Positions 12,423-40,280 of a stretch of 64,000 nucleotides of DNA are shown in pieces. The notes under the pieces were generated by a model. It was not told the DNA's origin and did not search any database. It saw nothing but the letters and a program-made list of their open reading frames with translations. The stretch is from assembly GCA_025611195.1 (NCBI GenBank), contig GCA_025611195.1_4718.2; one strand, written 5' to 3'. The DNA is from a phage. Position numbers and translations under genes: made by a program. Each line of letters begins with the position of its first letter. Position 1 is the first letter of the stretch.

Positions 12423-13997
12423 TTACAATTCAAAATCTTCATCGATAACGCGCTGGGTAAGCACTTTGTCGCTGAAGAACTCCACCTTGCGCTGATGGTA
12501 TTTACGATGCGCTTCGATAGAAGTACATACCAGATACCAGAAGGTTGGCGTCATTCCTTCAAACTTCCCTTTCAGCTGACGCAGTCGCCCCAACACCTGA
12601 ATGTTACCGGTTCGTGACCCCATCGCTAACGTCATGAACGCCATCACCAAGTCAGGAAGGTCGATACCCGTACCTGCCGATTTCACCGTCGTAACGCTAA
12701 TATCGTTATCCAACAAGACCATGAAATCTTCTTCAGCCGTATAAGGACCGATCTCTAACTCAGGAATACGTTCACTAAGGTAATGCGACAACGACTTACA
12801 CATATCGACGGTTGCACAATACACCAGCATCTTCATACCTTCCTGATACTGGTTCATGAAACCTTTGATGATAACCGTATAGATGAAGTTAAAATACGCG
12901 AGTTTGAGTTGCTTGTTCTTCATGATAGACTGTTCGAATATCGTGTGAGAATAAGAACCCCCAAACCCTTTATATCTGACTTTATCTGTACTGCGTAGTC
13001 GATACGTCACGGCATTTACCGCAATGTATTTCTTGTATTCGCCTTTCGCATAACGGGCTTCTTTCGGATACATCAAATACAACATCCGCTCGATGAACGG
13101 ATCATCGGACACCGCCGTTGCTGACAGATAGATGATTTCCGGAATACTAGCGTAACACTTGACCTTAAACAAGAAATGCAATGCTTCATGGCACTCGTCA
13201 TGAATCAGAAGGCCTATGCCGGTCTTTTCCCAAAACTCAGCGGGATGGAAGGCATATGGCGCAACGCAGTTATTCTTCTCGTAGTCCGCAATATAACGTT
13301 GGAACATGTTCAAGGAGAACAATGCGATTTTGAAGTCGAGTTCGCCTTGTTCAACCAAGGTTTGAAACTCCAACATACTGTAACGAGGAATGTCAGGATG
13401 CGGTGGATCCTCCTTAGCGTTCCCGCGTATCTCGATAACATCCCCTGGTTCCATCCCGAAGAAGTTCAGTAGTGAGCTTCGCCAACCTGGCATGTATCTC
13501 GGCGACAGAATGATACCCGTCCGCACACCGCGTCGGAAGGTAATCTCCTGCGACATGGCCGTTTTTCCCGACCCCGTTTGAGCGGTGTTTAGGCTCATTC
13601 TGAAGGGGGTATCCTTACCCCCGTCCATGTACTCCAACCATTCTTGCTGATCTTCACGCCATGGGAACTTCCATTTCTTTACGAACTCCACTTCTTTACC
13701 TGGTGCCGGATCGTGGTAAACGATTTCCAACCACTCTTTTCGTATCCCTCGGGAAAAGATAAAATCCAAAAACGATTTCAACTGTTCGCGGAGTAAGTAT
13801 ACCTCACTATAATCGCTTCTTGCCGCGGCATACGTGTTTATGGTATCGGTAACCATTCTCCGTGTACGAGGGTCGCGCCGTTTCCTCAGATGCAAACAAC
13901 GGTCTCGAAGGTAATGGCCGATAAGATGGGCAAATCGAAGTCCGTATCCGCTCAGCCTCATGCCGTGCGAGAAGACATCGATACGAGCTAACTTCAT
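12423..13997 (-). CDS. SF2 DEAH-box helicase
   Basis: Walker A AQTGSGKT, DEAH-like box LIHDECHE, motif V TVKSAGTGIDLP, motif VI QVLGRLRQ. Confidence 0.65.
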   Translation of the reverse strand: MKLARIDVFSHGMRLSGYGLRFAHLIGHYLRDRCLHLRKRRDPRTRRMVTDTINTYAAARSDYSEVYLLREQLKSFLDFIFSRGIRKEWLEIVYHDPAPGKEVEFVKKWKFPWREDQQEWLEYMDGGKDTPFRMSLNTAQTGSGKTAMSQEITFRRGVRTGIILSPRYMPGWRSSLLNFFGMEPGDVIEIRGNAKEDPPHPDIPRYSMLEFQTLVEQGELDFKIALFSLNMFQRYIADYEKNNCVAPYAFHPAEFWEKTGIGLLIHDECHEALHFLFKVKCYASIPEIIYLSATAVSDDPFIERMLYLMYPKEARYAKGEYKKYIAVNAVTYRLRSTDKVRYKGFGGSYSHTIFEQSIMKNKQLKLAYFNFIYTVIIKGFMNQYQEGMKMLVYCATVDMCKSLSHYLSERIPELEIGPYTAEEDFMVLLDNDISVTTVKSAGTGIDLPDLVMAFMTLAMGSRTGNIQVLGRLRQLKGKFEGMTPTFWYLVCTSIEAHRKYHQRKVEFFSDKVLTQRVIDEDFEL

Positions 13998-16000
13998 AAC
14001 GTGAATACATCCTCCGGTTTAGGTTCTTTGCGCGGTAAAAGCATGTAGTCGATCGGATGATCCGGCTTCATGGTTGGGATATAACTGTTCGGGTTTTGGA
14101 ACGCATCCAGTTGCTCTTGGTGAGCGAACTTCATACTCAAGGAGCGCATGTTCATGTTCTTCTTGAAGGTGCTGAAGTATCGTGTTGTTCCCTGTTTCGG
14201 CATGCGATAATCTTTCGTGTGTGGCGAACGAATCATGCTGGCGTAGAGAATAACATCGAGATGCGAAAGGTTCATTCGCAGACGCTGTGCGCACAAGCGA
14301 TGCCAATAGTACAGCACGTTTGCAACTTCTTCCGGTGTTGCTTCGTCTTCCGAGAGGAACCCGGCACTGAAAGAACCTTTCCCGAATTTGAACTCACGTT
14401 CGATTTCTTTTGCGTATTCCATCATGTTTTTGTGGATTAACGGCATCTGGAATAACGTACGTGAATTGTCCCAATGTTTCAAGTCGAAAATCACAATCCC
14501 GTCAGACGTCACTTCCCAGCTATGGCGTTTAAGATAACGGATAAACGCTTTACTCGGTACAACAGGACGTCCGCAGAAATCGAAATTGACTTTGAGCTTA
14601 CGATAGCTTTCATCTTTCCTGTCGTAAATCTCCATATCGCAAAGCGTCATGTTAAACAGACGCTGTGGTATCAGCGAACTGATTTCTTCCGCTTCGGCTA
14701 CATCGTACAACATGTTCGCAAGACCTAACTTCATCTTAATCAGCACGTGTTTACCTTTCAGCTCACGTGCGAGTTTGATGTCGTTCATGTTCTGGCTGTA
14801 ACGAAGGATATGTTGATATTCCGGTGGGATTGGTGCTGTAGAGACCGTTGACGAACCGTCGTGGTGTTTGGTAGAAAGAATGTTCTGCGTTACCTGTTGC
14901 GAGCAGGTACGCGCTGCGCCATCGCCGACATTATCGGTTAATGCGAAGTTATGACTTAATTCACCATAACACGTTGTGCATACCCCAGCAGGATCGGGAT
15001 GATGACAATAGTTAACGGAGCGCATACGCACTGTGGTGCCGATCAATTCTTTCATATGTGGTTGTATCGCTACCAACGAACCGTCATCACGAATAATGAA
15101 TCGGCCGTGGAAGCCACGCAGGTCGGTCTCATCACGGATTGGCATCGGGATGGTCTCTCTACTACCACAATCACCAGGATGTAGTCGTTGCACAACCGCT
15201 GTCGCTATCTGAAGTTCACGACCGAAATATTCAGACTTTTTAATCTGCTCTTTGTTGAACAGCAACGATTTCGCCGCAGAACGACTTTCTTTCAAGCTGT
15301 CGGGAAGAGAGATCAAACCTGACGCGTACGACCGCATTACTGGATCACGGAATATCTCGGAGTTAATATCGGTCAAGAATCCACGCATCCCAATACACTG
15401 CAGCACCTGCCCAATCGAAACGTGTTCGGTTCTTACCGCACGTGCAATAGGGTTTGCATGTAATGTTTTATCGGTGCTCAGTACCTTTGTCAGTTTCTTG
15501 TATGCGCTTTCGATACCTTCGCGGGTGGGTTCCGCTTCAGCGATGATTTTCTTAACTTCGGGGTGTACGGTAATCTGATAAAAATCATCCGCACAAATAG
15601 TTGTTACGTATTCCTCCAACGCATACGTAAAGAAGTTATACACGTTGTTAAACATATCGAACAGTGCTTTCCAGAGAACCTCACGATTCTCTTGTGGGTA
15701 AGCATACATGCATTGACGATACGCTGCGCTTTGCAACGCTACCGATGAACCCGCTGTAAACTTACGTTTATCAACCAGGTTCTCTTTTGTCAATGGTGTC
15801 TCAGGATACATGCGATGTACAGACCAGTGCATGTAACTAAAGAAAATGCGTCGCGCACGTAATTCATGAACGCCATCGTCCATCTCGATATATACACGGT
15901 CATTAGGCTGTGCCCACTCGAATACCTCATCAACCGGCCAGTGCATAAGCTCGCGTGCCCTCACACGACGTTTCGTGGTGGTCGTCTGTGTTGTAGTCAT
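13994..16000 (-). CDS. multisubunit RNA polymerase beta-prime, C-terminal subunit
   Basis: RSVNYCHHPDPAGVCTTCYGELS..AARTCSQQVTQNILSTKHH aligns by eye to E. coli beta-prime VRSVVTCDTDFGVCAHCYG..AAQSIGEPGTQLTMRTFH. Confidence 0.55.
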   Translation of the reverse strand: MTTTQTTTTKRRVRARELMHWPVDEVFEWAQPNDRVYIEMDDGVHELRARRIFFSYMHWSVHRMYPETPLTKENLVDKRKFTAGSSVALQSAAYRQCMYAYPQENREVLWKALFDMFNNVYNFFTYALEEYVTTICADDFYQITVHPEVKKIIAEAEPTREGIESAYKKLTKVLSTDKTLHANPIARAVRTEHVSIGQVLQCIGMRGFLTDINSEIFRDPVMRSYASGLISLPDSLKESRSAAKSLLFNKEQIKKSEYFGRELQIATAVVQRLHPGDCGSRETIPMPIRDETDLRGFHGRFIIRDDGSLVAIQPHMKELIGTTVRMRSVNYCHHPDPAGVCTTCYGELSHNFALTDNVGDGAARTCSQQVTQNILSTKHHDGSSTVSTAPIPPEYQHILRYSQNMNDIKLARELKGKHVLIKMKLGLANMLYDVAEAEEISSLIPQRLFNMTLCDMEIYDRKDESYRKLKVNFDFCGRPVVPSKAFIRYLKRHSWEVTSDGIVIFDLKHWDNSRTLFQMPLIHKNMMEYAKEIEREFKFGKGSFSAGFLSEDEATPEEVANVLYYWHRLCAQRLRMNLSHLDVILYASMIRSPHTKDYRMPKQGTTRYFSTFKKNMNMRSLSMKFAHQEQLDAFQNPNSYIPTMKPDHPIDYMLLPRKEPKPEDVFTL

Positions 16001-16145: not shown

Positions 16146-16631
16146 TTATCCAGCTTCCTGTTGTATAGCGTATGGATCCATAGCGTCTGACATATTCGCA
16201 AAAACGGTGAGAATAAACCCCTTTATCTGTCTCACCTCGGTTACACGAAGCCCTTTATCATTACGGTATACGTTTTCTTCACCAACCAACTTCGGCCTGA
16301 TAGCATAAACCCCATCAACAAACGGGAATGTCGGATACGGATAAATACCGATACGAATGATGTTTGGATGATCGCCTAGAAGGTCACGCCCAAATGTATC
16401 TACTCTACCGTAAACCGTTCCATCCACACCCTCCACTTCAATGAGATCATTTCGAATATCCTGAAATAGCTGCTCTAATGTGTCGGCGGGGTACGTATAT
16501 GCGACACCTAACGCTGGGTCCTCAATGGTTTTGACACTGAATCCGTTAAGCCAAACAATCTGTTCATCCGCCCATGTTTCTTCATATACCGTTAATCCAT
16601 CGCCGTATATGTTGGCGCGTGCTATCTCCAT
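16146..16631 (-). CDS. hypothetical protein (161 aa)
   Basis: ORF track. Confidence 0.55.
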   Translation of the reverse strand: MEIARANIYGDGLTVYEETWADEQIVWLNGFSVKTIEDPALGVAYTYPADTLEQLFQDIRNDLIEVEGVDGTVYGRVDTFGRDLLGDHPNIIRIGIYPYPTFPFVDGVYAIRPKLVGEENVYRNDKGLRVTEVRQIKGFILTVFANMSDAMDPYAIQQEAG

Positions 16632-16744
16632 AATCTCATTTCCTCTTATACGTTCGGATAGATGACATGTTGGATATACGTTGCCTTTGCATATATTGCT
16701 TTATTTCCGTCAGAAATAACGGAAAATAAAAACAACGACATAGT

Positions 16745-16775
16745 TCCCTCCCACCTCCACATGGGAGAGGGAGGG
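16745..16775 (-). terminator. GC-rich stem-loop (CCCTCCC/GGGAGGG)
   Basis: Inverted repeat in the 16632-16788 intergenic region. Confidence 0.4.
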
Positions 16776-16788
16776 CTATTCGTGTTTA

Positions 16789-17154
16789 TTACTCTATGCT
16801 GTCTTCTTCAACACAATCCTCTTCGGAACCGTCGAACGTTTTCTGCACCGCAGTGGTATCCCAGTTGGCAGCGTAATCAGCCATCGCTTCGCGCAACGCT
16901 TCTTCACCAGCATCGCCAGCCAGATCAAGCACAACCAAACCTTGCGCGACGTTTTGAGCGACAGTATCAATAACGGTTGCATCTTCTTCAAAACTACGTA
17001 CCGGTTCAATGGTGCCTACATCAACAGCATAGTTCGTGGTCGCTGTAAGCACGGCGACTTGTAGTGCATCGCTATTATCATCATCATGCAGTGCTGCTTC
17101 AATACCGATTGGACGGGCCAGTTCTTGCAGTGTTAATTTGCGAATTAAGTTCAT
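16789..17154 (-). CDS. small acidic protein, paralog family member 1
   Basis: LTLQELAR and VVLDLAGD motifs shared with the two adjacent small genes. Confidence 0.55.
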   Translation of the reverse strand: MNLIRKLTLQELARPIGIEAALHDDDNSDALQVAVLTATTNYAVDVGTIEPVRSFEEDATVIDTVAQNVAQGLVVLDLAGDAGEEALREAMADYAANWDTTAVQKTFDGSEEDCVEEDSIE

Positions 17155-17177
17155 TATGTTTTTTCCTCAGGTGAATG

Positions 17178-17528
17178 TTAGCAATCGTTTAAAACTTTTT
17201 CGATACGATGGTTGACGAGTTCATTGAACGACTCTTCAACTTGTTCGATAATTTCATCAACGTCGATATCTAATTGTTGGGGTTGGATAACATGCTCTTT
17301 CATGGTTTCTAACCAGTATTCGGCTTTAACCATAACGTTAGCTACTTGTTCGACCTGGCTGCGTATGTCGACGATCTGGCAGTCAGGATTTTTAATATCG
17401 ATGATGTGTCCGTGCTGATTGATAAAGCCTAGTTTATTCGACGCCTTTACCGCATCGCGGGCAAGTTCTTGCAAGATTAAATTATTTACGTAGTTCACTG
17501 CTACGGAACGATTTTCTTTATCACTCAT
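17178..17528 (-). CDS. small acidic protein, paralog family member 2
   Basis: ATG at 17528 with GAGGA RBS; the longer track ORF would read through hairpin 17607-17635; LILQELAR motif. Confidence 0.5.
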   Translation of the reverse strand: MSDKENRSVAVNYVNNLILQELARDAVKASNKLGFINQHGHIIDIKNPDCQIVDIRSQVEQVANVMVKAEYWLETMKEHVIQPQQLDIDVDEIIEQVEESFNELVNHRIEKVLNDC

Positions 17529-17606
17529 ACCAGGGATCCTCTTTAAGTCTTCACATTCTAGTGTTAAGCAGTTAAAATAAACCGTCCCTTTAATCAGCAT
17601 AAACAT

Positions 17607-17635
17607 CCTCCTCCTACCATGCGGGCAGGAGGAGG
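17607..17635 (-). terminator. stem-loop CCTCCTCCT/AGGAGGAGG
   Basis: 9-bp inverted repeat after the stop of 17647-18060. Confidence 0.45.
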
Positions 17636-17646
17636 CGTAATATGCA

Positions 17647-18060
17647 TCAGAAAGGTGTGCGATTCTTATATTCGAATAATGTCTGAAGGACACATCGTGT
17701 TAACGAGTTTTGTAATTCGATACGTCCTTGTTCTCCGAACAGATCCAACACCATCATCCCTTTTGCTGTTTTCTCTGCCACTTCTTCACAAATCTGTAAA
17801 TTGTACATGTCGTCATTGCCGAGTTCCTTTCGACCGATCGAACTGACACGCATCAACTCACCTTTACTATCGCGAACATCGGAGAATGCATCATAGACCG
17901 CATCGATGTTCGCAGAACGCGTCAAACCCTCCGCTTCGCGCCACTCTCGATATGTACCATCAAGCGTTTGTTCCTCGCCCGAGGTTGTTGATTCGCTGTT
18001 GGTGGTTGGGCGAATTAAATGGGGTGTTATCATCGCGATCACGCTGTCGTAATGGTCCAT
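17647..18060 (-). CDS. small acidic protein, paralog family member 3
   Basis: MMVLDLFGEQG and NLQICEEVAEK motifs resemble the neighbours. Confidence 0.5.
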   Translation of the reverse strand: MDHYDSVIAMITPHLIRPTTNSESTTSGEEQTLDGTYREWREAEGLTRSANIDAVYDAFSDVRDSKGELMRVSSIGRKELGNDDMYNLQICEEVAEKTAKGMMVLDLFGEQGRIELQNSLTRCVLQTLFEYKNRTPF

Positions 18061-18071
18061 CGTTTACCTCG

Positions 18072-20240
18072 TTAGCTTTCGCAGTCATCTGCGTCGATGA
18101 TTTGTCCGCCAGCAACGTTCAGTTGATGATACAGAATCCTCAACGCACGGTTGCCACCAATGGGATACTTCTCGAAGTTGGTCGCAATAGGAATCGCTGA
18201 CGGCTTATCGGTCGCATAGATGCTTTCAGTGATGCTATCCACCTGTTTTGGATTGTTCGCATAGTCCATAAAGACGCTCGCAAACCATCCGCCAGCGAAG
18301 GCGGTAACTTCGCGATGTTCAGATTCGCCACAGTAACGAGTCGGTTGCTCTTTACCGGGAGAACTGTATTTATCGCTATTACTGAGTTTCGACGGTAATC
18401 CATGCGCTTGCAATTTAGGGATACCCACAGCCGACCAATCGTTCGCCGTCTTCTCCAACATCATGATGTACGTGTCACCGATCGCAATATCGTTCTTGGT
18501 TGTCCGCCACTGTCCAGAACGCCCGCGGTACCGTACAGGACCTTTCTTCAACGGGAACTCACGAATCAGATTCTCCATACGTTCTGAACCTGCTGCGATA
18601 CTGTCCGTCGGGATATAAACTTCCGTACCGTGGCGCTGTACGTACCGTAAATGATCCCATTTATCCTCATTCGTGATACAGTATTTTTCAACAACCTGTT
18701 CCACGAACTCAGGACTGACGATATAGTAATAGCGCATCAGTGTGTTCCAGGCGGTCTCCAGATCGCCTGCATCCATCACTGGTTTCAGTTCACGCATGAT
18801 CTGATCACCAACGCCGTTGATGTATGGCGCATTAACACGACTTAAACTCATCCTTTTAATTACCGTGCTATCGTCAAACATAAAGTCCGCAACGTTACCC
18901 CATTGGTCAACCGGCATTTCATCGTCTTCCATGATGTCGGTTACGACGAATTTATCGCCTGCCATACCGGTGAATTTAAACCCGATGCCTGGAACAACGT
19001 CATACGTGTATGTGATGGTCACACGCCAATCATCAAGATTCTCTTTACGGTAATCGCGGGTCGGTAACACATGGCGTAGCTGTCCGTTAGGATTGCGGAT
19101 ATCAATACCGTGTTCAGCGTCAGCCAGGTTCAACCACCACATCACCGTTTGATGATGACGTATCGGCGTACCAACGCGTTCACGTTCGTACTTACGAACA
19201 GCATCCTGAATTCGGGTGTAAAGCAAACCGATTGCGTTCTCGTATTTCAGGAATTGACGATACGGAGGACGCATCTTCTCTTCCATCATAATCGCGCGCT
19301 CGCGGGCTTGACGTCCAGAACGACGATGTCGATCGCTGACAACATCGATATCCGTTACACGCGCATTCGGTTCAGCGTAAGTGAGATCATCGTAAACATA
19401 ATCCACACGCTGAAGATTACACGTCATCATGTCAACAACGCTGAGGATAGGATCTATTTCGCGTGTTGCTGCAAGTAACCCATCCTTACGAATACGCTCA
19501 CCGTTCTCGGGTATCGCTTGATATACCTCATCATCGCCGTAGAGATTAATTGGATATCGTGATTTACCTGATGTGATCGTTCGCTTCTCAATGCCGGTAC
19601 TGGTGAAATGCTTCAATACACCACGACGGGCAACGCCACCATCTTCAATACACTGGTAGAAGCTACCGAAACACACCTTGCAATCGCGACCGTAACCCCA
19701 CTCACGTGTTTCTTGATTGATCGCTGGGCTTTCCATCAAACGAGAATATCGCGGTACGATCTGGCCTCGACGAAGGGAATGGAACAAGTTGGTTGGTCGA
19801 AAACGGAAACCGTACTGCTGATGCATGATGTGATGCTCAGGCACTTCAAGCAAGCGTAGCTCGTGACGGTTACCATCCTCTTGGTTTTCGTACAGCACGT
19901 AATGCATCGTGTTTGTTTTGATGCTGTTTGCTGTATGTCCTGGTTGAAACCGTGGAATGATATCTATGATGCGAGATTCAACTGGAAACTCTACTGACCA
20001 AGTGTTCTGTCCGTACTGGTATTCAATCCCCGTCGTTAGTCGGGACGGCTTCGCATCTTTGATAACCAACGCTTGGCTAAGATGTCCACCAAACATCGCA
20101 GCGCGCTGTGCTGAGTTATAATGCAATAGCCCGTTAAGTCCAGTCCCTACGCCAGTATACTCCTGTTTAATGGGAATGATTTTACCTTCAGCGATTGCCT
20201 GCTTCACAGATTCATAAAGAGGTTTTTCTTTATAATGCAT
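18072..20240 (-). CDS. multisubunit RNA polymerase beta, C-terminal portion
   Basis: TGMAGDKF..EMPVDQWGNVADFMFDD..IKRMSLSRV resembles beta GRHGNKGV..DMPYDENGTPVDIVLNP..PSRMNIGQ; YIMMLEK resembles YMYMLKL; ATG at 20240 has AGGAAG RBS. Confidence 0.6.
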   Translation of the reverse strand: MHYKEKPLYESVKQAIAEGKIIPIKQEYTGVGTGLNGLLHYNSAQRAAMFGGHLSQALVIKDAKPSRLTTGIEYQYGQNTWSVEFPVESRIIDIIPRFQPGHTANSIKTNTMHYVLYENQEDGNRHELRLLEVPEHHIMHQQYGFRFRPTNLFHSLRRGQIVPRYSRLMESPAINQETREWGYGRDCKVCFGSFYQCIEDGGVARRGVLKHFTSTGIEKRTITSGKSRYPINLYGDDEVYQAIPENGERIRKDGLLAATREIDPILSVVDMMTCNLQRVDYVYDDLTYAEPNARVTDIDVVSDRHRRSGRQARERAIMMEEKMRPPYRQFLKYENAIGLLYTRIQDAVRKYERERVGTPIRHHQTVMWWLNLADAEHGIDIRNPNGQLRHVLPTRDYRKENLDDWRVTITYTYDVVPGIGFKFTGMAGDKFVVTDIMEDDEMPVDQWGNVADFMFDDSTVIKRMSLSRVNAPYINGVGDQIMRELKPVMDAGDLETAWNTLMRYYYIVSPEFVEQVVEKYCITNEDKWDHLRYVQRHGTEVYIPTDSIAAGSERMENLIREFPLKKGPVRYRGRSGQWRTTKNDIAIGDTYIMMLEKTANDWSAVGIPKLQAHGLPSKLSNSDKYSSPGKEQPTRYCGESEHREVTAFAGGWFASVFMDYANNPKQVDSITESIYATDKPSAIPIATNFEKYPIGGNRALRILYHQLNVAGGQIIDADDCES

Positions 20241-20271
20241 AGGACTTCCTATTATCGAATTGAGGTACGTC

Positions 20272-20625
20272 ATGTCTAACACGCCCCTGAACGACTTTCT
20301 TAAGACAAACCCCGATGACCTCATCCACGATCTTGATTTCAGGAACGTTGTTGAGATGCATCTGGAATATTTCAAAAATGCCGGACTGGTCTCTACGATA
20401 GACATACCACCCGAACGCGCCTACGAATTCGATGGTAACTTTTATGGATTGTGTCGTGTTCTGCTCGGCGAGGGCAGTGAATCAATGCACTGGATCACCA
20501 TGAGACTCAATGGTTATCGCGACCCTACGGAATACACGGCCGATGTTCTAACCATGAAGATTGTCGATACAAGCGCAATCAACACATTAAAACAGCAGTA
20601 CCGCACAATCCACTACAGCGCTTAA
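20272..20625 (+). CDS. hypothetical protein (117 aa)
   Basis: Track start is TTG at 20260; ATG at 20272 has GAGGTA RBS; diverges head-to-head from the beta gene. Confidence 0.5.
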   Translation: MSNTPLNDFLKTNPDDLIHDLDFRNVVEMHLEYFKNAGLVSTIDIPPERAYEFDGNFYGLCRVLLGEGSESMHWITMRLNGYRDPTEYTADVLTMKIVDTSAINTLKQQYRTIHYSA

Positions 20626-20690: not shown

Positions 20691-21971
20691 TCAGAAACGA
20701 TTTACAGTACGTCCTGTCCACGCACTCAGGATGTTGTTACGTTCCATCTCAGCCCGACGACGTAAACCGTTTGGCGACTGCGGTGCTGGCGGCATCCCCC
20801 ACCCAGCAGGCTGCATACCCATACCAGGCCAAGCGGTATTATTGAACATCGTGCCGTTACGTTCCGCGACACGATTCATCAACGCATCAAACGTGCTATT
20901 ACCTGCCGGTTGGTTACCACCACTTTCCCACTGATTAGGTTGAACAGGTGCGGTTTTACCTAACAGGTTATCAATCACGTTACTTGTTGCAGCAGGACGC
21001 GGTTGCATACCTTCATGTGCAGCTGCTGATGGATTTGGCTTAACCGTCGGCTGCGGACGACTGTTCAGCGTTACACCCATGTTGTATTTCGCTGGTGGAA
21101 TCTGACCACGATGTTGGGTAATCGGCTCAAAATCCTCGACCCAGGTAACATCGCAATAACCGTTCTCTTTACCGTCGTACTTATCACCAAACAGTTTGAT
21201 GAGATTGTTCAGCGGTTCCATCAGCTTCGCGAAGCTGTGGATAAGACAATCGAAATAGGGAGCATGAGGATCGCTTGACCCAGCATTATACGTTTCACTT
21301 ACTTCACCGGAGTGAGGGATAACGTACTCAACCAGGTTTCTCAGCATGTTAAGATCTTTCTTGGAAATCTCAACACCACACCAGTACGTTTTCTTATCTT
21401 TCGTGCTGATGTGTTCCTCTTCCATGAACGGGAAAGTAACTACCGCAACACGGGTCATCTTCTTACCCATGTAGGTTGCGCCGGTACGACGAAGATAAAT
21501 TTTAGACAGCGTATACGGTGTGTCGCGTTTCAACCAAACGGTAACCAGTTTGCCCAGGGTCGTTAATGTTTTATCGCTGGCGTCCGCAAGGATGTTGAAG
21601 AACTCTTTTTGCTTCGGTCCGAAACGTTTTGCTTCTTTAGGGTTGATTGCGGTTTCAACCATCCAAATCAGCATAGAACACAGCGTGGCGTTAAAACGAA
21701 CAACCATCGCGCGACGCAGGAACTGAAGTACTTCCGATTCGCCGTTCATCACGTCTTCACTTAACGGATGGAACAACACGCGTTCAGCTAACTGGTTTCC
21801 GGTACGAACTTCGGGAACCGGCATCAGCAACGGCATGCTTTCCACGGTAGCGGCAACTGCAACAACTTTACCATCCCCATCCGTAAAACGATATTCTAAT
21901 TCGTGGGCATCATTCTCAAAATAGTTAACGCTTTGCAGCGCTTTGCGATAAGCTTCAATAAGCTTCGACAT
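20691..21971 (-). CDS. hypothetical protein with G/P/Q/N-rich C-terminal tail (426 aa)
   Basis: ORF track; low-complexity C-terminus. Confidence 0.6.
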   Translation of the reverse strand: MSKLIEAYRKALQSVNYFENDAHELEYRFTDGDGKVVAVAATVESMPLLMPVPEVRTGNQLAERVLFHPLSEDVMNGESEVLQFLRRAMVVRFNATLCSMLIWMVETAINPKEAKRFGPKQKEFFNILADASDKTLTTLGKLVTVWLKRDTPYTLSKIYLRRTGATYMGKKMTRVAVVTFPFMEEEHISTKDKKTYWCGVEISKKDLNMLRNLVEYVIPHSGEVSETYNAGSSDPHAPYFDCLIHSFAKLMEPLNNLIKLFGDKYDGKENGYCDVTWVEDFEPITQHRGQIPPAKYNMGVTLNSRPQPTVKPNPSAAAHEGMQPRPAATSNVIDNLLGKTAPVQPNQWESGGNQPAGNSTFDALMNRVAERNGTMFNNTAWPGMGMQPAGWGMPPAPQSPNGLRRRAEMERNNILSAWTGRTVNRF

Positions 21972-31416: not shown

Positions 31417-31438
31417 TTTAAGATTGCGTGCGGCATAG

Positions 31439-31465: not shown

Positions 31466-31479
31466 AGCCATTAAATGGA

Positions 31480-32118
31480 TTAACCTAATTTACCACCGGC
31501 GATATTGGTGAAATCTTCGCCATCAGGAACTTGCAGTAGAATACGTGCCATGTCCCAGTTGGTTAATGTGATTGCTTTATCATCGATACTCAGTTCTGGT
31601 AGGTCGAGTTCATGATCATCAAACTCGTAGGAAATACTCCACGTTTCATCTGTTTTAGGATCTGTCATCAATACACCGTCTGTCACACGCATGTAGTCCG
31701 GATGCAGTTCATTACTGAACGTACTGAACGGATCGGTGTAACATTCAGCATACCCTTCGATCTGCTGACGCTGTGCCTTCGTACGTAATTCAGGGCATGC
31801 CATAATCAGTTGTCGAGATATGCCGTTTGCAGCACGGAAGTCTTCCACGGTGTTACATGGCATAACCACATCGTCATGGAAGATGTTCTCCGATTGTCTC
31901 AACAGCGTCTTACGGAGTTCAGCATAGTTTATCTGATTGAACGCATCGAACGTTGCTAACGATTCAGCGTAAAAATGCTTTACGTGTTCGCTTGCGCCGC
32001 CGAGGCTATTCATCAACTTGTGACCATACTCCATGAAGCTTTTATCGAGACCGGAGGACATTTCTCCGAACCTCAGTGCACGATAACTGTCTCGTCCACC
32101 TGTAAATATTTGCGCCAT
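31480..32118 (-). CDS. hypothetical protein (212 aa)
   Basis: ATG preceded by AAAGGAGGA RBS. Confidence 0.6.
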   Translation of the reverse strand: MAQIFTGGRDSYRALRFGEMSSGLDKSFMEYGHKLMNSLGGASEHVKHFYAESLATFDAFNQINYAELRKTLLRQSENIFHDDVVMPCNTVEDFRAANGISRQLIMACPELRTKAQRQQIEGYAECYTDPFSTFSNELHPDYMRVTDGVLMTDPKTDETWSISYEFDDHELDLPELSIDDKAITLTNWDMARILLQVPDGEDFTNIAGGKLG

Positions 32119-32133
32119 TACAGGCGTCCTCCT

Positions 32134-34723
32134 TTAGCAATGGTTGTTAGTTGCTTCTATTTCATCAAGATACGGTTCTACGTCATCGCCCTCCACGAAT
32201 TCGTTGAACCAACAGTCAATGGTAGAAATAACCGGTGACTGGTGTTCACATTTCTTAGATACCTTAAAAGGTACGTTATTATCCATCATACCGAGTTCGG
32301 GTCGAAAACGCCCGAAATGTTTCGCAGTCCAAATGTCTGGGACGATATGGTTGTTCATCGTGGTGTTCAGCATGAGTCGCTACCTCATACCCGCAGCTTT
32401 ACCTGCAGCTTCCGGTGTTACCGGAATGTCCAGAATACATCTTATCCATATTCCAAATGGAACGTAGGACTTCCGCGCTGGATCTCGCTTGAGACCACGT
32501 ATTCGTTGAACGTTCTCCTGAACGGAGCTTCGCTGCTGATCGAACATTGTCGTGTACGGTAGGCATCCCCGAAGGGATTGTCATTGAAGCCGCGTACATC
32601 CGCTACCTTGTTTCTACCTTATCGGTTCCTCTTACGAGGCGTAGCGGCCTTAGCCCTTCCCAGCAATTCACGGAATCCAAGCTCTTCCTTTCGGAAGGCA
32701 GGGCCTATGATTAAGCATCCCCGTCGCTGTTATCGACTATATCTTCATCCTCGTTGCGAGGAGTCTCCCGTTTGGGTCTGTGTTTAACAGAGCCTACTCT
32801 ACTCAACATCGCGTCTTTCGATAGTCTGTGAGCACACATCTTAACGAACATTCGTGGATTCCTAAACAGGTGAACGTTCTTGTTGAGATGCTTCGCTGCG
32901 GATTATTCCCGTCCTACCTCTTTTACCGTACCCAGTTCATTACGCTGGCCCTCATCTATGTCACCATGATGAGTTGGTGTGTAGTCCGATTACAGAAACT
33001 TCCCGTCAATTAGAGAGTTTTAACTACGTTCCTGTTACCAGAAACCAGATCCCGACGGTATCAATAAATCAACGTAAGTTATTGATTTAATTGAAAAACT
33101 GAAATCTGCATTATCTAAATCTTCAGTATGGTTCGCTACTCCATACCCGTACCTCATGTACTGCTTACGTCTTTCACGTAAGGATAGACTATATCTTTCA
33201 CCCTCAGCATTATCTGGTCGGGGCTCCCATTTCGGCGGTCAGATGACCGGTGGTTTCCCACGCCGCTTGGCCCTAACGCCCGTAAGCGATAGTCGTTGAG
33301 CACATCTCCGTTCTGGAGACTTCGCTGCGGATTCCCCAATCCTTGCCGCTTTTACCGTACCTGAATGATTAGTTCAGCCCCACGCTCTGTTCCCAGGCAT
33401 GGTTGGTGGACGAGGCTCTAAGTAGGTTCCCGCATTAGAGAGTTCCTCGTAACAACATTTCTGCGTTACTGGGCCTAACGACCCTTTCAAGATCATCACG
33501 CTTAACCCGATGGTGTTATCCTGCGGATCGCGTTTAACCTTGGTGATTTCAAGACATTGGTTACTGCTTCGGTCAAGTGATGGGTTTCGAACAAAGCCGC
33601 ACACAATCCCATCGAACGGTGTATCAGCAATAAGCTCATCATGCAGCTCGCTCATCATCGGATGATAATTACGGACATGTTCCGCAACGAACGCACGTGC
33701 TGCTCTCGGTGAATAACCGCGATGGAATAACTTGGATTGGATATGTTCTTTATTGGTTAAAGTAAATGGTGCGTATGGGAAATGCAGATGATAATAACGA
33801 TGGTTCGCTGTTATCGAACTGATTACGGTACGCGTGGTGAATGGATGTAATGTACCTAATATGTTTTTACGCGTGATACCTTTCTTCTTACCGATGAACT
33901 CATCGAAAATCGCCGCGTGGTATTGCAGCAGCTTCAATTGCACTTTCGCCATCCAGTTTTCTTTCTTTCTGGCGCTCAAAGGTGTTGTTGGATGATAGAT
34001 ACTATTCAGTGTACCAATAGCATCGATCGCACCTTCCATTTTGCTATCTGCATAACGGCCGGTCGGTGTATTTTCGATAACGAACATCATGGCCGCAGGA
34101 AAGCTGATATACTGACTGAAGAACTTATCACGATGGATACGGATGAATTCTCGTAGCGTGTCAACTTTCTCTGTGTTCTTCGGTCCACGTAATGTGGGTC
34201 CTTTATACAAGATCTCCATGATGCGATCGAAGTTCTGTATAAAGCTATTTACACCACGCCGTATCCCGAATACATCAAATTGCTGCTCCAGATAGTTCTT
34301 GAGTTCAATGGGTCGTTTTACATTTGGACGGTAACTGGCATCAATGAGCCACGTCATCGTTTCGAAGCTTTTGATATTCAACTCGCTTGCCAGCACGAGA
34401 TGGACCAACGGGTTAATGAACGCATCGATTCCTTCAGGGACACGCGCCCAGACCGTCGAACGAATCTCCTGTTCTGCTGGGTAGGTTACAACCGTTTTAC
34501 AGTTTGGACACACCGTGCCGAGCAACTCACCGCGATTGTAGAAACCACAACCACATTGTGGCGTGATATCCAACGTATCGCTGGAGTAAACACGGGTGAT
34601 AAAACTGTTTAATTTCTTCTTCTCTTCGACGACTTTTGTATCGTAATCGTTCAACAAAATCGGCGTAAAGGGAAGTTCTGCGAGCTGTCTATCGAAACTC
34701 ACGATATCGAGCATGATGGCCAT
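32134..34723 (-). CDS. multisubunit RNA polymerase beta-prime, N-terminal subunit; proposed 4 exons (34723-33490, 33120-33102, 32726-32714, 32367-32134) split by three group I introns
   Basis: Exon 1 has the Zn-finger (CGCG..CPNC) and RNPSLDRSSNQCLEI (cf NRAPTLHRLGIQAFEP); micro-exons encode LDNADF and DGDA; last exon NTTMNNHIVP (cf QMAVHVP); exon lengths 1234+19+13+234 = 1500 nt keep frame; unspliced ORF ends in intron read-through. Confidence 0.5.
32368..32713 (-). other. group I intron C (ORF-less, about 346 nt)
   Basis: P AATTGCTGGGAAGGG with Q ATCAGCAGCGAAG (compensatory GCTG/CAGC), R CAACGAATACG with S AAGATGTATTC (compensatory P7 change); 3' tail homologous to intron A. Confidence 0.45.
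32727..33101 (-). other. group I intron B (ORF-less, about 375 nt; 3' domain unusually short)
   Basis: P AATTGACGGGAAG, Q AATCCGCAGCGAAG, R GTGCTCACAGACTATCG, S GAAGATATAGTCGATAAC; only about 8 nt between S and the proposed 3' splice G. Confidence 0.4.
33121..33489 (-). other. group I intron A (ORF-less, about 369 nt)
   Basis: Minus-strand elements P AATGCGGGAACC, Q GAATCCGCAGCGAAGTC, R GTGCTCAACGACTATCGC, S AAAGATATAGTCTATCC in correct order; possible P1 pairing exon GAUCU with GGGUC; boundaries approximate. Confidence 0.5.
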
Positions 34724-34765
34724 GGGACATCTCCTACAAATGAAAAAGAACGTTAGGACGTATAA

Positions 34766-34789
34766 GGGAGGGAGGTTGCCCTCCCTCCC
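34766..34789 (-). terminator. stem-loop GGGAGGGAGG/CCTCCCTCCC between chimallin candidate and beta-prime N gene
   Basis: 10-bp perfect inverted repeat; may set expression ratio between the two genes. Confidence 0.45.
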
Positions 34790-34815
34790 GTCAGATTACA
34801 TCGAACGTTCTTCCA

Positions 34816-36711
34816 TTAGAACAGGTTGAATGCTCCACCCATGTTGTTACCACCAACATTCGGACGATCGCTACGTGCATAGATGTTGCCGGAGATGTTA
34901 CCCAGACCACGAGCACGTGCTGCTGTGTTACCACGAACGGCGGTACCTGCCAGATGCTGGATGTTCTCAGGACGGATGGTGAAGCCAGCTTCGGCAGCCG
35001 CTTCAATCAATGCCGCAAGCGCATTCGGTTCGAAATCGTAACGCATTGCCCAACCGGTTTGTTCCCAGCTACCAGACAGAACGCGATCGATGATTTCGTG
35101 ACGAGCAACAACACGCTGAGACATCGACATATCGGTACGGTCGAAGCTGTCTTCCCAAGCTTCTACGGTATCCGGGTTAGTGATGTTCATCATGTACAGA
35201 TCGTCCATATCACGAATATCGTGACGGTTACCGTCCTGGTGGTTGTAGTGACCCAGCGGGATACGGTTACCAGTAGCGTAGACTAACGGTTGGCCGTATT
35301 GATATTTCTTGCTGAAGCAACCCAGGGTGGTATCATCGAATGCACGATAGAGTGCTTTATAGCCTTCGGAGATTTCTTGAACTTTACCGTCAACGTTGCC
35401 CGTAAAGATCTTCTCAGCTGCAGGGATCATACGCAGCAACCAGCTATATTCGCCTTCTTCCGGTACGTCGATAGAAATCAGCAGAGACGGATACAGTACC
35501 TGTTGCAGGAACTTGTAAATCTGCTCGTTGGTTTGAGTAGACAGATCCAGCGGTGCAGTAACTTCCGGATCCAGTACCATCGCCAGAGCACCCGGGTTAT
35601 GCGGACCAATACCACGAGCAGCGTTGCTGATTAAAGACTGCGCCCACGCCATACCGCTGTTCAGCGTAGCGATGGTACCAATCAGACCCAGCACAAACGT
35701 GTTCGGAGTGAACGCATCCAGCTCCAGCGGGTAGGCGCTGGTCATCACGTAACGCGGTTGGTACTGTACAGTCGGCGGTACCGGATAACCGTTAACCAGA
35801 ACAGGACCTTGGTTGAAGGTCGGGTTCTGCGGGCTGTAGGTCAGGTCAATGTAACCAGTGGTTGCGACCAGGCGCTGTTGACTATCGTAATCGCTCATCG
35901 CTTGACGGATACGGTTAGAGATAGTTACAGTGATGTCAGAACGCACTGGGTTACCGACGATATCGCTGTCCTGCATACCGCTGGTGTTGTACTGAACGCT
36001 GCTGATCGGCTGATCGCTTGCCATCATGCCCAGGTTGAACTGCGGCAGACCCAGTTTATCGCCGAGACGGATTTCGATCGCGGTTTGGATTGCGTTATCT
36101 GCAGCAGACAGCAGGGTGGTTGCCAGATGCGCAGATTCAGCAGTGATTTCATTGGTCACCACAGCCAGACCGGCGATACGAACAGTACCGTTAGCCTTAC
36201 CGCCAATAGCCGCATACATTGCCGCCATGACTTCGTTGATGAACGTGCCGTTCAGGTTATCAACCCAGGTACGCGGTACCAGAATGTTACCATGCGGACC
36301 TTGTTCTTCACGACGCGGCAGCGGAGCCAAACCGGCAACCAGCGGAAGCACATAACCGAAGAAGTGGTTATGGTCACCAACTTTTGCACCGCTCATAACA
36401 ACCAGGGTCGGATACGGTACACTGTACTGGTTAGGATCGACGGTCACCATGATGAAGTCGTCTTTGAACCCTTTATCTTCCAGTTCTTTCTCCATCAGAC
36501 GACGGAGATTCAGTACCTGCTCGGAGCCAGTATTACGGCTAATACGACGGCTCAGTGTACGGTTGATCGTACGCATCGTATGAGTTACTTTAGGCTGGCC
36601 AGCAAAATCTGCAGCGGTTTCCAGCGCCTCATCAGCACGTTGTGCGGTGCGGGTTTCAGCTGCACGAATTTCTACATTATCGTTACCGTTATTACGTACG
36701 TCTAAGCCCAT
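34816..36711 (-). CDS. chimallin (phage nucleus shell protein) candidate
   Basis: 631 aa, the size recalled for known chimallins; directly upstream of the beta-prime N gene as recalled for phiKZ gp54-gp55; strong preferred-codon bias; first gene after promoter motif 36781-36800; no sequence comparison possible. Confidence 0.4.
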   Translation of the reverse strand: MGLDVRNNGNDNVEIRAAETRTAQRADEALETAADFAGQPKVTHTMRTINRTLSRRISRNTGSEQVLNLRRLMEKELEDKGFKDDFIMVTVDPNQYSVPYPTLVVMSGAKVGDHNHFFGYVLPLVAGLAPLPRREEQGPHGNILVPRTWVDNLNGTFINEVMAAMYAAIGGKANGTVRIAGLAVVTNEITAESAHLATTLLSAADNAIQTAIEIRLGDKLGLPQFNLGMMASDQPISSVQYNTSGMQDSDIVGNPVRSDITVTISNRIRQAMSDYDSQQRLVATTGYIDLTYSPQNPTFNQGPVLVNGYPVPPTVQYQPRYVMTSAYPLELDAFTPNTFVLGLIGTIATLNSGMAWAQSLISNAARGIGPHNPGALAMVLDPEVTAPLDLSTQTNEQIYKFLQQVLYPSLLISIDVPEEGEYSWLLRMIPAAEKIFTGNVDGKVQEISEGYKALYRAFDDTTLGCFSKKYQYGQPLVYATGNRIPLGHYNHQDGNRHDIRDMDDLYMMNITNPDTVEAWEDSFDRTDMSMSQRVVARHEIIDRVLSGSWEQTGWAMRYDFEPNALAALIEAAAEAGFTIRPENIQHLAGTAVRGNTAARARGLGNISGNIYARSDRPNVGGNNMGGAFNLF

Positions 36712-36780
36712 TTGGGATTCCTCTTTTCTTAAACTTTATTAAATGACGTCATTGAATCAGCTTCTACTCGCTCATTCACC

Positions 36781-36800
36781 TAGGTAATATAACCCTGAAA
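36781..36800 (-). promoter_or_regulatory. promoter-like motif, minus-strand TTTCAGGGTTATATTACCTA
   Basis: Same consensus; 70 nt upstream of the chimallin candidate start. Confidence 0.5.
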
Positions 36801-38126: not shown

Positions 38127-40280
38127 TTATTCTGCAGTTTCTTGCTTCGGTAAATAACTTGCTGCGATGTCTTGGGCCAACAATGTATTGTTTTTATTCG
38201 AGATGAAAATACCGTAACTTTCCATTAACGCATAATACGAACGAACGAGCGTAGAGATCAGTCGACGAATATCCATACCTTGAATAAAGATATCAGGAAG
38301 CCCGGAGGCTTCGATCACTGGTAATGGTATCGTTAAGTTGCTTATCGTTTTCTTATCGTTACGTACAATCCAATCACGGAAACGTTGTTGTAACCCTTTA
38401 TCCTCCCAGGAATCAATCCAATCATTAAGAAGCGTTTTGTTCTTCGTCGCCAACGGTACACGAACCCCAACATAAGGTGGTTCGGGGCAATGGCCGTACG
38501 ATTGAGCAAACACTTCTTCCCACATATCGTAAGACTGTTTCGTTACCGCAACATGTGGTTTCACTTTAACACGTGTTAAGAAATCCGGATCGCCACGTTT
38601 CATTGATTCAACGATTTCGTTCTCTAGTGAGATAATATCGTCAAGAACCAATCGAATGCTGATCTTCTCATTACGTAACAGCTTATCCATTATACCACAC
38701 ATCATGCGTTCAACACGTTGGACGATTATTTTTGGTGCTGACGCATCACGCATAACAGGACCTTTCAACTCCAGCTTCGGTGGGTTGATGGGAACCCCTT
38801 CACGCATGGTCATGTATCCGTAATAGTTTTTACCCATCGAGGTTAACGACAGAATTAAGAACATATATTCGTTCTTCATTTCCATTACGTACATATGCTC
38901 TTTCGCTACACCGATATTACCAGAACACATCGCCATCAGATGAACCGTAATCTGCGTAACCAGATAGATAAGCGTGTTTGCTAAGCGCGTCGAAATCGGA
39001 TTGATCTCCATATTTCCAAATCGCCACTGAACCCACTCCTGGCAGGTAAACACCGTCGAGTCGGTATCAGACAACACACCCACTTCACGGATTGCTGACG
39101 GAAAAGCATAAACACCAGCCGGTTGGTTCTCGGTACGCCAGAACGCCTTAATTAAATCAGCGTAGCTTTGGATGCGTTGCAACATTAATTTTGTCGTTGC
39201 TGCAGTAAGACGATAACCAAGTTCATTTCCTTTTTCTAGCGCTACGTAAATCGCTTCCCCGTTCAAGAACTCCGTGCATTGTGCTGTAATCCAAGCGACC
39301 GTGTTGTTATCCATGGAAGCAATAATGGCTTTAGCCTCTTCCATCGTTTCAACAGGCTCGGATGCCAGTTCACATAACGAGTCAAGAAAATCTCGAACAA
39401 ATTCAGGATTAAGCTCACGTAACGAGTACAGGTTATTGCTGTACATGTAGCAGGCGCGTTCCAACGGCGTTAAACCGGTAATTAGCTCCCGGATGGTCAG
39501 TTCTTTCTCTGGGTCGAAAATATATCGATGCAAGCATTTCGATACGTTAGCCCAAACCTCTTCCGGTGTAGGGTAATGCAGTTTGTATTTTACCATTACC
39601 TGCTCAATGGCTTTACGATCGCTGTTACGGACAATGCTCACAATGTTTTCAATTGCGATATCGCAATCGTAATAATGGAAATTACCCGCAAGGAAGCGTT
39701 CGTTGTTCGCATTGGCTGAACCTGAAGCACAGCGACATGTTGTCGTTAAACTTGGATGCGCGATCGGATTATAAAAAGGGTTAAACTTGGATGCCTGTGT
39801 TCCTGATAAACTGTTGTTGTCTAACTTGGTGTTGGTTTGTCGTTTATCGTGTAACTCAGCTTCGTCTTTACGTCCATGGGCTTGCGCTATCGACATTTGT
39901 TTCTTTTGTTTCTTACGCAACTTACCGTTTTCAACCGCAAAGTCGCTTAGCACACTGGAACGTGTTTCACGCGGATAACAGTTAGCCCATACCGGCGTGA
40001 TAATTAAATTATTTTCTTTAATATCATTGAAGTATTGGCTGAACTTGATGACTTCTTTTTCTCGGTTTCCTTCAGTACGCTGTGTTAGTACAAGGCAGTC
40101 GGGATCAACCATCCCGTATTTTCCACCAGGACTAACCGTATCAAGAACAAACTGCAACGCTTCCCGCTGAGAAATCCCACGCATGCGCATTAAGAACAGG
40201 GTATAATCCTGTACCGCTTCTTTGGTCATATCCAACGTACGACCATATCCGTTTTCATCGTAAAAGAACGGATTTTCCAT
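38127..40280 (-). CDS. large hypothetical protein (717 aa); weak candidate RNAP beta N-terminal portion
   Basis: YGHCPEPPYVG loosely resembles beta YGRVCPIETPEGPNIG; also contains SDTDS; assignment speculative. Confidence 0.6.
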   Translation of the reverse strand: MENPFFYDENGYGRTLDMTKEAVQDYTLFLMRMRGISQREALQFVLDTVSPGGKYGMVDPDCLVLTQRTEGNREKEVIKFSQYFNDIKENNLIITPVWANCYPRETRSSVLSDFAVENGKLRKKQKKQMSIAQAHGRKDEAELHDKRQTNTKLDNNSLSGTQASKFNPFYNPIAHPSLTTTCRCASGSANANNERFLAGNFHYYDCDIAIENIVSIVRNSDRKAIEQVMVKYKLHYPTPEEVWANVSKCLHRYIFDPEKELTIRELITGLTPLERACYMYSNNLYSLRELNPEFVRDFLDSLCELASEPVETMEEAKAIIASMDNNTVAWITAQCTEFLNGEAIYVALEKGNELGYRLTAATTKLMLQRIQSYADLIKAFWRTENQPAGVYAFPSAIREVGVLSDTDSTVFTCQEWVQWRFGNMEINPISTRLANTLIYLVTQITVHLMAMCSGNIGVAKEHMYVMEMKNEYMFLILSLTSMGKNYYGYMTMREGVPINPPKLELKGPVMRDASAPKIIVQRVERMMCGIMDKLLRNEKISIRLVLDDIISLENEIVESMKRGDPDFLTRVKVKPHVAVTKQSYDMWEEVFAQSYGHCPEPPYVGVRVPLATKNKTLLNDWIDSWEDKGLQQRFRDWIVRNDKKTISNLTIPLPVIEASGLPDIFIQGMDIRRLISTLVRSYYALMESYGIFISNKNNTLLAQDIAASYLPKQETAE

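Follow-up and report, generated by a model that had tools for sequence, protein, structure and literature searches.

The non-virion RNA polymerase (nvRNAP) of phage phiKZ is a five-subunit enzyme in which gp55 and gp74 make up β′, gp71-73 the C-terminal half of β and gp123 its N-terminal half (Yakunina et al. 2015, PMC4666361; PMC8287921), with gp68 as the fifth subunit, present in the purified enzyme (PMC4666361). The β′ polypeptide of this type is split after the double-psi β-barrel (DPBB) (PMC7598289). Such split RNA polymerases (RNAPs) are already known from phages Goslar and phiKZ and have been solved structurally (PDB 7OGP, 7OGR, 8QUE and 9RJS for the phiKZ enzyme, gp55/56.1, gp68, gp71-73, gp74 and gp123). 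Group I introns bearing a homing-endonuclease gene (HEG) have also been described in chimallivirus RNAP genes, namely the phiKZ gp56 intron, PhiPA3 gp65-66 and PhiPA3 gp210, the last of which is used in interference competition (PMC11620839). In fact, phiKZ gp55 is itself spliced: its PDB chain is named 'PHIKZ055,PHIKZ056.1', its intron scored 75.6 bits on the Rfam model RF00028, and the native protein has 56 kDa (PMC4666361). Phage genes with several introns are known as well, such as the Twort ORF with three group I introns (PMC3073962), and the DNA polymerase and terminase genes of Bastillevirinae, with two or three introns.

In this work, we analysed a 64,000-nt stretch of phage DNA (contig GCA_025611195.1_4718.2, referred to here as the window), the minus strand of which carries genes of an nvRNAP of the phiKZ design, presumably with five subunits: β′ split after the DPBB, the C half of a β that is presumably divided into N and C halves, a σ-like fifth subunit and the same gene order beside the gene for chimallin. 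The homology with the phiKZ proteins is full-length, with pairwise identities of 25-33%, and the closest described relatives are the Goslar genes gp165, gp171, gp175, gp247+gp185 and gp039, with about 96% nucleotide identity to the window. Where phiKZ has a single HEG-containing intron (gp56) in the gene for the N-terminal part of β′ (β′N), at AAU↓GCU (N↓A; the arrow marks the insertion point), the window appears to have three HEG-less ones, none of them at that site and two of them shared with Goslar. In our assessment it is very probable that the locus encodes a Goslar-like nvRNAP with four of its five genes in the window and with β′N interrupted by three group I introns.

As in the other chimallivirus RNAP introns, the insertions affect the most conserved codons of an essential subunit, and HNH/NUMOD endonucleases are found in sister alleles. 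In contrast to those cases, the window packs three successive introns into 26 nt, and none of them has an endonuclease gene. The Twort and Bastillevirinae genes resemble it in having several similar group I introns in one essential gene, and paralogous introns at different sites. In the literature that we searched, we found no earlier account of phage group I introns separated by exons as small as 13 nt, of a comparable cluster in an RNAP catalytic loop, or of the Goslar intron cluster and its polymorphism, which is not proof of novelty.

Structure of the β′N gene

The initial annotation had assigned β′N to a single gene at 32134-34723. Its identity and its outer limits, the start at 34723 and the stop at 32134, were borne out, but the interval is not one open reading frame (ORF): it consists of a 449-aa ORF (33374-34723), about 1 kb without any ORF longer than 66 aa, and a 79-aa ORF (32134-32373). 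The two ORFs share one profile, phrog_2987 (E 2e-113 for β′N in PHROG), of whose 478 positions the first ORF matches 1-414 and the second 424-475. The alignment of the 449-aa ORF with PDB 7ogp_A (gp55/56.1; E 1.5e-59) also stops at residue 414, and its last 35 codons correspond to read-through into intron 1. At the other end, exon 4 was matched by phiKZ gp56.1 in tblastn. Comparison with Goslar by blastn revealed a 368-nt segment present in the window only (33115-33482) and a 1065-nt segment, corresponding to the HNH gene gp186 and its stem, in Goslar only; the alignment breaks at 33482/33483. Judging from these comparisons and from the RNA and allele data below, the β′N gene is made up of four exons interrupted by three group I introns, as follows:

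34723 to 33481, minus strand: β′N exon 1, 1243 nt; codons 1-414 and the first base of Tyr415; last base U
33480 to 33115, minus strand: predicted group I intron 1, 366 nt; no HEG
33114 to 33102, minus strand: β′N exon 2, a micro-exon, AUAAUGCAGAUUU, 13 nt (…Y-N-A-D-F)
33101 to 32727, minus strand: predicted group I intron 2, 375 nt; no HEG, no P9
32726 to 32714, minus strand: β′N exon 3, a micro-exon, CGACGGGGAUGCU, 13 nt (…D-G-D-A)
32713 to 32359, minus strand: predicted group I intron 3, 355 nt; no HEG
32358 to 32134, minus strand: β′N exon 4, 225 nt; 74 codons and the stop; starts AUG AAC AAC (M-N-N-H-I-V-P…)

The three introns are located at GGGU↓AUAAU, UU↓CGAC and GCU↓AUG, all of them preceded by U and ending in G, and all within the codons for G-YNADFDGDA-M, the nine-codon catalytic loop that binds Mg2+. 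Exon 3 contributes the last two catalytic aspartates, and the NADFDGD loop is formed only when the four exons are joined (…KGYNADFDGDAMNNH…). Splicing in silico yields a protein of 497 aa, …SVMILKG-YNADFDGDA-MNNHIVPDIW…, from a predicted ligated mRNA that reads …AAAGGGTATAATGCAGATTTCGACGGGGATGCTATGAAC… across the junctions; the predicted junction-spanning tryptic peptide of the spliced product is GYNADFDGDAMNNHIVPDIWTAK.

Joining the exons changed the outcome of the homology searches. The unspliced ORF had no RNAP match in Pfam, whereas the spliced protein passes PF00623 with 36.9 bits (cut-off 25.3) over residues 371-428 and matches 63 PDB sequences, including E. coli β′ 330-471; the E value to phiKZ gp55 improves to 1.1e-74. 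When aligned with the spliced phiKZ gp55+gp56.1, the product showed no gaps across the junctions (…SVLCLKAPNADFDGDQLNLTLMPDVY…), with blastp E values of 4e-81 to 4e-82. Alternative paths from DGD to MNN, with intron 3 ending after …CACC or with exon 4 starting at the ATG of the 79-aa ORF, were considered and rejected, as they break the requirement for an intron-terminal G (ωG rule) or add residues absent in phiKZ and phrog_2987. The boundary of intron 3 is ambiguous by 1 nt (GC↓…↓G ATG), with the encoded protein unchanged.

This tandem cluster is well supported and unannotated so far. The public Goslar record includes one Intron_gpI feature and two unjoined CDSs, and shows neither the second intron nor the micro-exon. 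Goslar differs from the window in having no intron 1 and in holding the HNH gene gp186 within its intron at F↓D.

Group I features of the intron RNAs

A scan of the whole window with the default Rfam gathering threshold gave no matches, because all three introns score under the 50-bit gathering score of RF00028. When the 1.7-kb region was scanned on its own, intron 1 produced a full-length match (29.6 bits, E 3.3e-5), intron 2 a match of 46.9 bits (E 2.3e-10) covering model positions 1-253 and ending precisely at G 32727, and intron 3 a match to the core only (16.7 bits, E 0.25). Introns 1 and 2 align along their full length to the RF00028 consensus, including the P7 pairing GACUA/UAGUC. No ORF longer than 66 aa was found in the window introns, nor any trace by tblastn of the HEGs known from related alleles (Goslar gp186 and the L017 ORF described below).

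The guide of each intron can pair with both flanking exons. Intron 1 can form a P1 of 4 bp (GGGU/GCCC) and a P10 of 5 bp (CGUUA/UAAUG). In exon 2, nucleotides 2-6 pair with the guide of intron 1 (P10) and nucleotides 7-13 with that of intron 2 (P1). The latter intron has a contiguous guide, CCGUCG-GGAUCUG, whose two parts pair over 6 bp with exon 3 (P10) and over 7 bp with exon 2 (P1, whose splice-site pair is U·G). The Goslar versions, exon CCGACUU and guide GAGUCGG, differ by two fully compensatory changes. For intron 3, P1 has 3 bp (GCU/GGC) and P10 has 4 bp.

Intron 2 is 97% identical to the Goslar feature annotated as Intron_gpI, and over part of its length it shows 77% similarity to the intron of PhiPA3 gp65; intron 3 is 99.4% identical to its Goslar copy. 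Pieces of intron 1 are similar to introns found in phages of Bacillus, Enterococcus, Vibrio and E. coli. In addition, positions 33246-33333 within this intron are 83-84% identical to the unannotated start (bases 65-152) of the record of Escherichia phage Av-05, which possibly represents an intron fragment that has escaped annotation.

Covariation of helices was observed in the intron 3 family (n = 5: window, Goslar, L008 and two L007 paralogues). With the canonical P2-P9.2 fold and the P3/P7 pseudoknot, 98.5% of the alignment cells are paired and 31 of 93 pairs are doubly changed, including three of the six pairs in P7, whereas controls with slid partners gave 37-43% paired cells and 1-2 doubly changed pairs. 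Its minimum free energy (MFE) z-score was -2.80. P3 and P4 were drawn wrongly by RNAalifold because this program cannot draw the pseudoknot, and a helix that it proposed (columns 9-14/57-62) could not be fitted into the canonical group I scheme; the hand-built structure was tested instead. In the intron 1 family, a few compensatory changes were detected among seven variants.

Intron alleles in related genomes

In IMG/VR, JGI/ENA metagenomes and Logan, another 13 β′N loci of the Goslar type were found, with proteins that are 99-100% identical; the related loci considered are L005-L008 and L011-L018. The resulting 14 Goslar-like genomes and contigs, none of which is intron-free, fall into five configurations, with introns at a total of four sites that lie inside 26 nt of the codons for the catalytic loop. 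Named by the residues that flank each site, the configurations are:

Configuration A, three HEG-less introns, at G↓Y, F↓D and A↓M: window, L005, L008, L014, L015, L016, L018
Configuration B, an intron with an HNH gene at F↓D and a further intron at A↓M: Goslar
Configuration C, introns at A↓D and A↓M: L007
Configuration D, intron at A↓D only: L011-L013
Configuration E, a single intron at G↓Y, which is a 1381-nt form of intron 1: L017

Intron 1 is absent from Goslar (which reads …AAA GGT TAT AAT…), L007 and L011-L013; intron 2 is absent from L007, L011-L013 and L017; and intron 3 is absent from L011-L013 and L017. Each of the window introns thus has a natural empty-site allele, which fixes the boundaries. 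An exact search with a degenerate pattern in IMG/VR detected no fully intron-less Goslar-like allele. Outside this group, chimalliviruses are mostly uninterrupted here, 116 of 245 records having one match that covers at least 80% of the junction-spanning query.

Two of the alleles carry an endonuclease gene, in different places. In Goslar, intron 2 has the HNH gene gp186 in a 3′ stem-loop. In L017 (NFYZ01000026.1), whose nine loop codons are contiguous after the single intron, the 5′ part of intron 1, following exon 1, includes an ORF for a 323-aa endonuclease of the HNH_3/I-HmuI-NUMOD type, with 27% identity to gp186 (E 2e-26).

The A↓D intron deserves separate mention. In L007 (IMGVR_UViG_3300011560_000001), the two introns are located at 5252-5601 and 5620-5976, and the one at A↓D is a paralogue of intron 3, with 72% identity. 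Its 3′ end matches intron 1 instead, with 100% identity over 31 nt to that of the window and 94% over 48 nt to that of L008, which gives this intron a chimeric appearance. The guide GGC reads the triplet GCU, which stands before A↓D as well as before A↓M; the A↓M intron of L007 is preceded by C rather than U. As part of the tentative reading given below, one intron family may have moved between the two sites, which share this 5′-exon triplet, and the guide may have directed such ectopic integration, for instance through reverse splicing.

Weighing the spliced-gene reading

Several observations weigh against a gene that is spliced three times. None of the introns reaches the gathering score of RF00028 (46.9, 29.6 and 16.7 versus 50 bits), and the MFE z-scores of introns 1 (-1.46) and 2 (-1.75) are unremarkable. 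P1 is short in introns 1 (4 bp) and 3 (3 bp), intron 2 has no P9, which Goslar retains along with its HEG, and no P5 could be assigned to intron 3 in the hand-built canonical fold. The alignment behind the intron 3 covariation contains no more than three truly separate lineages, and RNAalifold, applied to the same sequences, supplied some of the structure that was tested on it. Moreover, we infer splicing in the window phage from its sequence.

Some of these points would also agree with a β′N gene that is genuinely broken, either with the 449-aa and 79-aa ORFs translated separately or as a pseudogene, the 1.1 kb in between being debris of a non-splicing intron and its HEG. The sub-threshold Rfam scores and the lack of any HEG remnant are compatible with this, as is the GenBank entry of Goslar, with two CDSs (gp247 and gp185) and one ncRNA. 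However, both 13-nt segments are kept in frame, flanked by U↓ and G↓, in seven independent genomes. Guides co-vary with synonymous changes in the exons, and the intron helices carry compensatory substitutions, which argues for selection on RNA structure. The exon 1 protein is 100% identical to that of Goslar within DNA that is about 96% identical, as expected under purifying selection. Furthermore, NADFDGD is present in neither of the two ORFs, so that an unspliced form of this essential polymerase would lack the metal-binding loop. A broken gene therefore seems to us very unlikely. Harder to set aside, though still on the unlikely side, is a reading in which the introns are real but not all of them autonomous, depending on a protein cofactor or on an obligatory order of removal, or giving rise to exon-skipped by-products. 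The short P1 of introns 1 and 3, the missing P9 of intron 2 and the sharing of 13-nt exons between neighbouring guides would fit this, and exon skipping is reported for the three-intron Twort gene (PMC3073962). On the other hand, the pairings of neighbouring guides do not overlap on the micro-exons, so their simultaneous recognition is sterically conceivable. The reading that we prefer is still that of a four-exon gene with three group I introns.

The other subunits and the identity of the polymerase

Three further nvRNAP genes were identified in the window by orthology:

13994 to 16000, minus strand: nvRNAP β′ C-terminal subunit (β′C; orthologue of phiKZ gp74 and Goslar gp165), 668 aa, uninterrupted
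18072 to 20240, minus strand: nvRNAP β C-terminal half (βC; orthologue of phiKZ gp71-73 and Goslar gp171), 722 aa, uninterrupted
23615 to 25201, minus strand: fifth nvRNAP subunit (orthologue of phiKZ gp68, σ-like), 528 aa

The β′C product matched phrog_3015 (E 9e-170) in the PHROG profile search and PDB 7ogp_D, PHIKZ074, over residues 11-654 (E 6.5e-87), and its PDB matches extend to bacterial β′ chains, down to E 4e-5. By blastp, it matched phiKZ gp74 (E 1e-95) and not the virion subunit gp80. The βC gene lies inside a longer ORF, 18072-20405, in which a start at the ATG at 20240 yields a product of 722 aa, as long as Goslar gp171. The product of this ORF matched phrog_3295 (E 3.5e-180) and the βC product PDB 7ogp_C, PHIKZ071 (E 4.3e-86), while the Pfam match to RNA_pol_Rpb2_6 was weak and under threshold (E 0.0056). 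Both phiKZ gp71 and gp73 align to this single ORF, one after the other (2e-42 and 6e-40): βC is uninterrupted in the window, whereas phiKZ (gp71 and gp73, split by an intron with gp72) and PhiPA3 (gp65-66) have an intron there. Intron occupancy of nvRNAP genes therefore varies by lineage.

The fifth subunit was absent from the initial annotation. Its product matched PHIKZ068 in PDB 7ogp_B/9rjs_B over residues 23-518, that is, along its full length (E 1.6e-28), as well as gp68 by blastp (E 1e-33) and phrog_3209 (E 4e-68), and its gene occupies the same position as in phiKZ, ahead of the gp69- and gp70-like genes. With it added to the other three RNAP genes, four of the five genes of the nvRNAP are accounted for in the window. 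As possible RNAP pieces, we also tried the gp69- and gp70-like genes themselves (22027-23613 and 20691-21971), which gave no RNAP match in PDB or Pfam, and PHROG detected no RNAP family among the other window ORFs of at least 300 aa. As for the N-terminal half of β (βN), tblastn with gp123 gave no match in the window. Its homologue in Goslar is gp039 (PDB 7ogp_E, phiKZ gp123, E 1.2e-40), located at 39.8-41.6 kb, about 95 kb from the region equivalent to the window and two genes away from the one for the major capsid protein, a placement that it shares with phiKZ; the βN gene of the window phage is thus presumed to lie outside the window.

Since the subunit roles of the phiKZ orthologues are established, the three RNAP labels that had been proposed, β′C, the C-terminal portion of β and β′N, are therefore correct, and the searches against PDB upheld RNAP homology for all three (E 6.5e-87, 4.3e-86 and 1.5e-59, respectively), at levels that, like the PHROG values, are well above chance. 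The genes are also dispersed across the window as described.

A different matter is whether these genes belong to the non-virion enzyme or to the RNA polymerase that is packaged in virions (vRNAP). The two sets, each made up of split β/β′ homologues, are indistinguishable by eye, and PHROG calls all of them 'RNA polymerase beta subunit', so the vRNAP had to be considered. Nevertheless, among the phiKZ RNAP subunits, the window proteins had significant blastp matches to gp55, gp68, gp71, gp73 and gp74 only (E 1e-95 to 1e-33 for the nvRNAP paralogues), and no window product matched the virion subunits gp80, gp149, gp178 or gp180 with better than E~1. The gp68-like subunit, known from purified phiKZ nvRNAP (PMC4666361), is encoded within the same block. 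In addition, the synteny with phiKZ gp54-gp75 is full: along the minus strand follow, with others interspersed, the genes for chimallin, β′N, an SbcD-like nuclease, the gp68-, gp69- and gp70-like proteins, βC, β′C and the helicase. The β′ split is also that of the phiKZ enzyme, with separate genes for β′N, ending shortly after NADFDGD, and β′C, which match 7ogp_A and 7ogp_D. It is thus extremely improbable that the three RNAP genes belong to a vRNAP, and by orthology the set is a phiKZ-type nvRNAP, an already known enzyme. The initial annotation had reached the right answer by arguing from adjacency to chimallin; the real evidence is the paralogue test. What counts against this assignment is that the label 'non-virion' rests on orthology, from which absence from virions and the timing of expression are likewise deduced.

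Two features of gene arrangement were also noticed. The genes for βC and β′C, adjacent in phiKZ, are separated in the window by five small ORFs at 16146-18060 (Goslar gp166-gp170). One of these, at approximately 16789-17154, the homologue of Goslar gp168, is reported to be a virion protein with more than 200 copies (bioRxiv 10.64898/2026.04.21.720040). Further on, the stop of β′C and the start of the downstream SF2 helicase gene overlap by 4 nt (ATGA, 13994-13997), and phiKZ gp74 and gp75 overlap too.

The 717-aa ORF near the chimallin gene

A fourth ORF, of 717 aa, had been put forward as a possible N-terminal piece of β:

38127 to 40280, minus strand: divergent family-B DNA polymerase (Goslar gp244), not an RNAP piece

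The motif on which that proposal was based, YGHCPEPPYVG, is indeed present, at residue 595 of the product, and without this ORF the window would have no candidate for a βN gene. However, the profile searches returned DNA polymerase families only, namely PF20286 divDNApol, from profile position 3 to 704 of 705 (E 4.5e-204), and phrog_2927, DNA polymerase (E 1.9e-206), and the Goslar counterpart is annotated as DNA polymerase. The best blastp match to phiKZ RNAP subunits had an E value of 0.19, with none to gp123. Such end-to-end DNA polymerase profiles, together with Goslar gp039 as the true gp123 orthologue, leave practically no chance that this ORF is the N-terminal piece of β. The gene is located two genes from chimallin. 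A tblastn search with phiKZ gp82, annotated as 'DNA polymerase', gave no match to 38127-40280 in the window.

Genome context

The region 31400-36800 is 96.4% identical at the nucleotide level to Escherichia phage Goslar (NC_048170) by megablast, and by blastn the whole window is collinear with Goslar 146887-192987, with 94-97% identity, except for approximately 32.7-33.5 kb (the Goslar coordinate being roughly the window coordinate plus 135.5 kb). The window therefore derives, as far as can be read from its sequence, from a Goslar-like nucleus-forming jumbo phage of the Chimalliviridae. Directly upstream of β′N, in the arrangement of phiKZ gp54/gp55, lies the following gene, which is part of the context and not of the RNAP:

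34816 to 36711, minus strand: chimallin, the nuclear shell protein (PF25677, E 4.8e-28; phrog_4795, E 1e-54)

Its counterpart in Goslar, gp246, is annotated as 'nuclear shell protein'. Further chimallivirus genes in the window encode a second helicase (7319-9505), the SbcD-like nuclease (27123-28265), PhuZ tubulin (44667-45647), the terminase large subunit (53346-55577) and the tail sheath (61030-63102). At 48158-48391, tblastn gave a weak match to the HNH part of the endonuclease encoded in the L017 intron (E 0.053, 25% identity over 81 aa), which may correspond to a free-standing HNH gene or to a chance match.

Implications for chimallivirus biology

By analogy with phiKZ, the injected virion polymerase would transcribe the nvRNAP genes early, and the five products would next come together as the enzyme responsible for transcribing the later genes within the nucleus formed by chimallin. 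Before it could encode active enzyme, the β′N pre-mRNA of the window phage would have to undergo three group I self-splicing reactions, as unspliced RNA would terminate 35 codons into intron 1, giving a 449-aa product without the aspartate triad. The window introns would be relics of mobile elements, devoid of endonuclease genes.

A tentative further reading, to which we give somewhat less than even chances, is that, in Goslar-like phages, mobile group I introns compete with one another for insertion into the nine codons of the β′ catalytic loop; it combines the blocking of relatives' HNH sites by HEG-less introns with guide-directed ectopic movement. Four insertion sites, five with that of phiKZ, fall within 26 nt, and the window would represent the maximal load, its micro-exons being almost entirely guide targets. 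The separate guide pairings on the micro-exons may be what allows so crowded an array to fold and to be spliced. On this reading, HEG-less introns would persist because they destroy the targets of relatives' HNH endonucleases, of the gp186 and L017 types, and such target-site destruction would give immunity during co-infection.

In conclusion, the chimallivirus split RNAP, introns in its genes and phage genes with several introns were all known before, and what the window adds is a corrected gene model, in which the Goslar-like β′N is a three- or four-exon gene. Public records hold two unrelated CDSs, so annotation and proteomics databases are without the real 497-aa protein and its active-site peptide. 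For RNA biology, three group I introns that recognise 13-nt exons common to neighbours would make a stringent ribozyme substrate. Finally, the natural allele series at a single 26-nt target in an essential gene would offer a system for intron competition, homing immunity and ectopic movement, questions to which the work on PhiPA3 gp210 has lately drawn attention.

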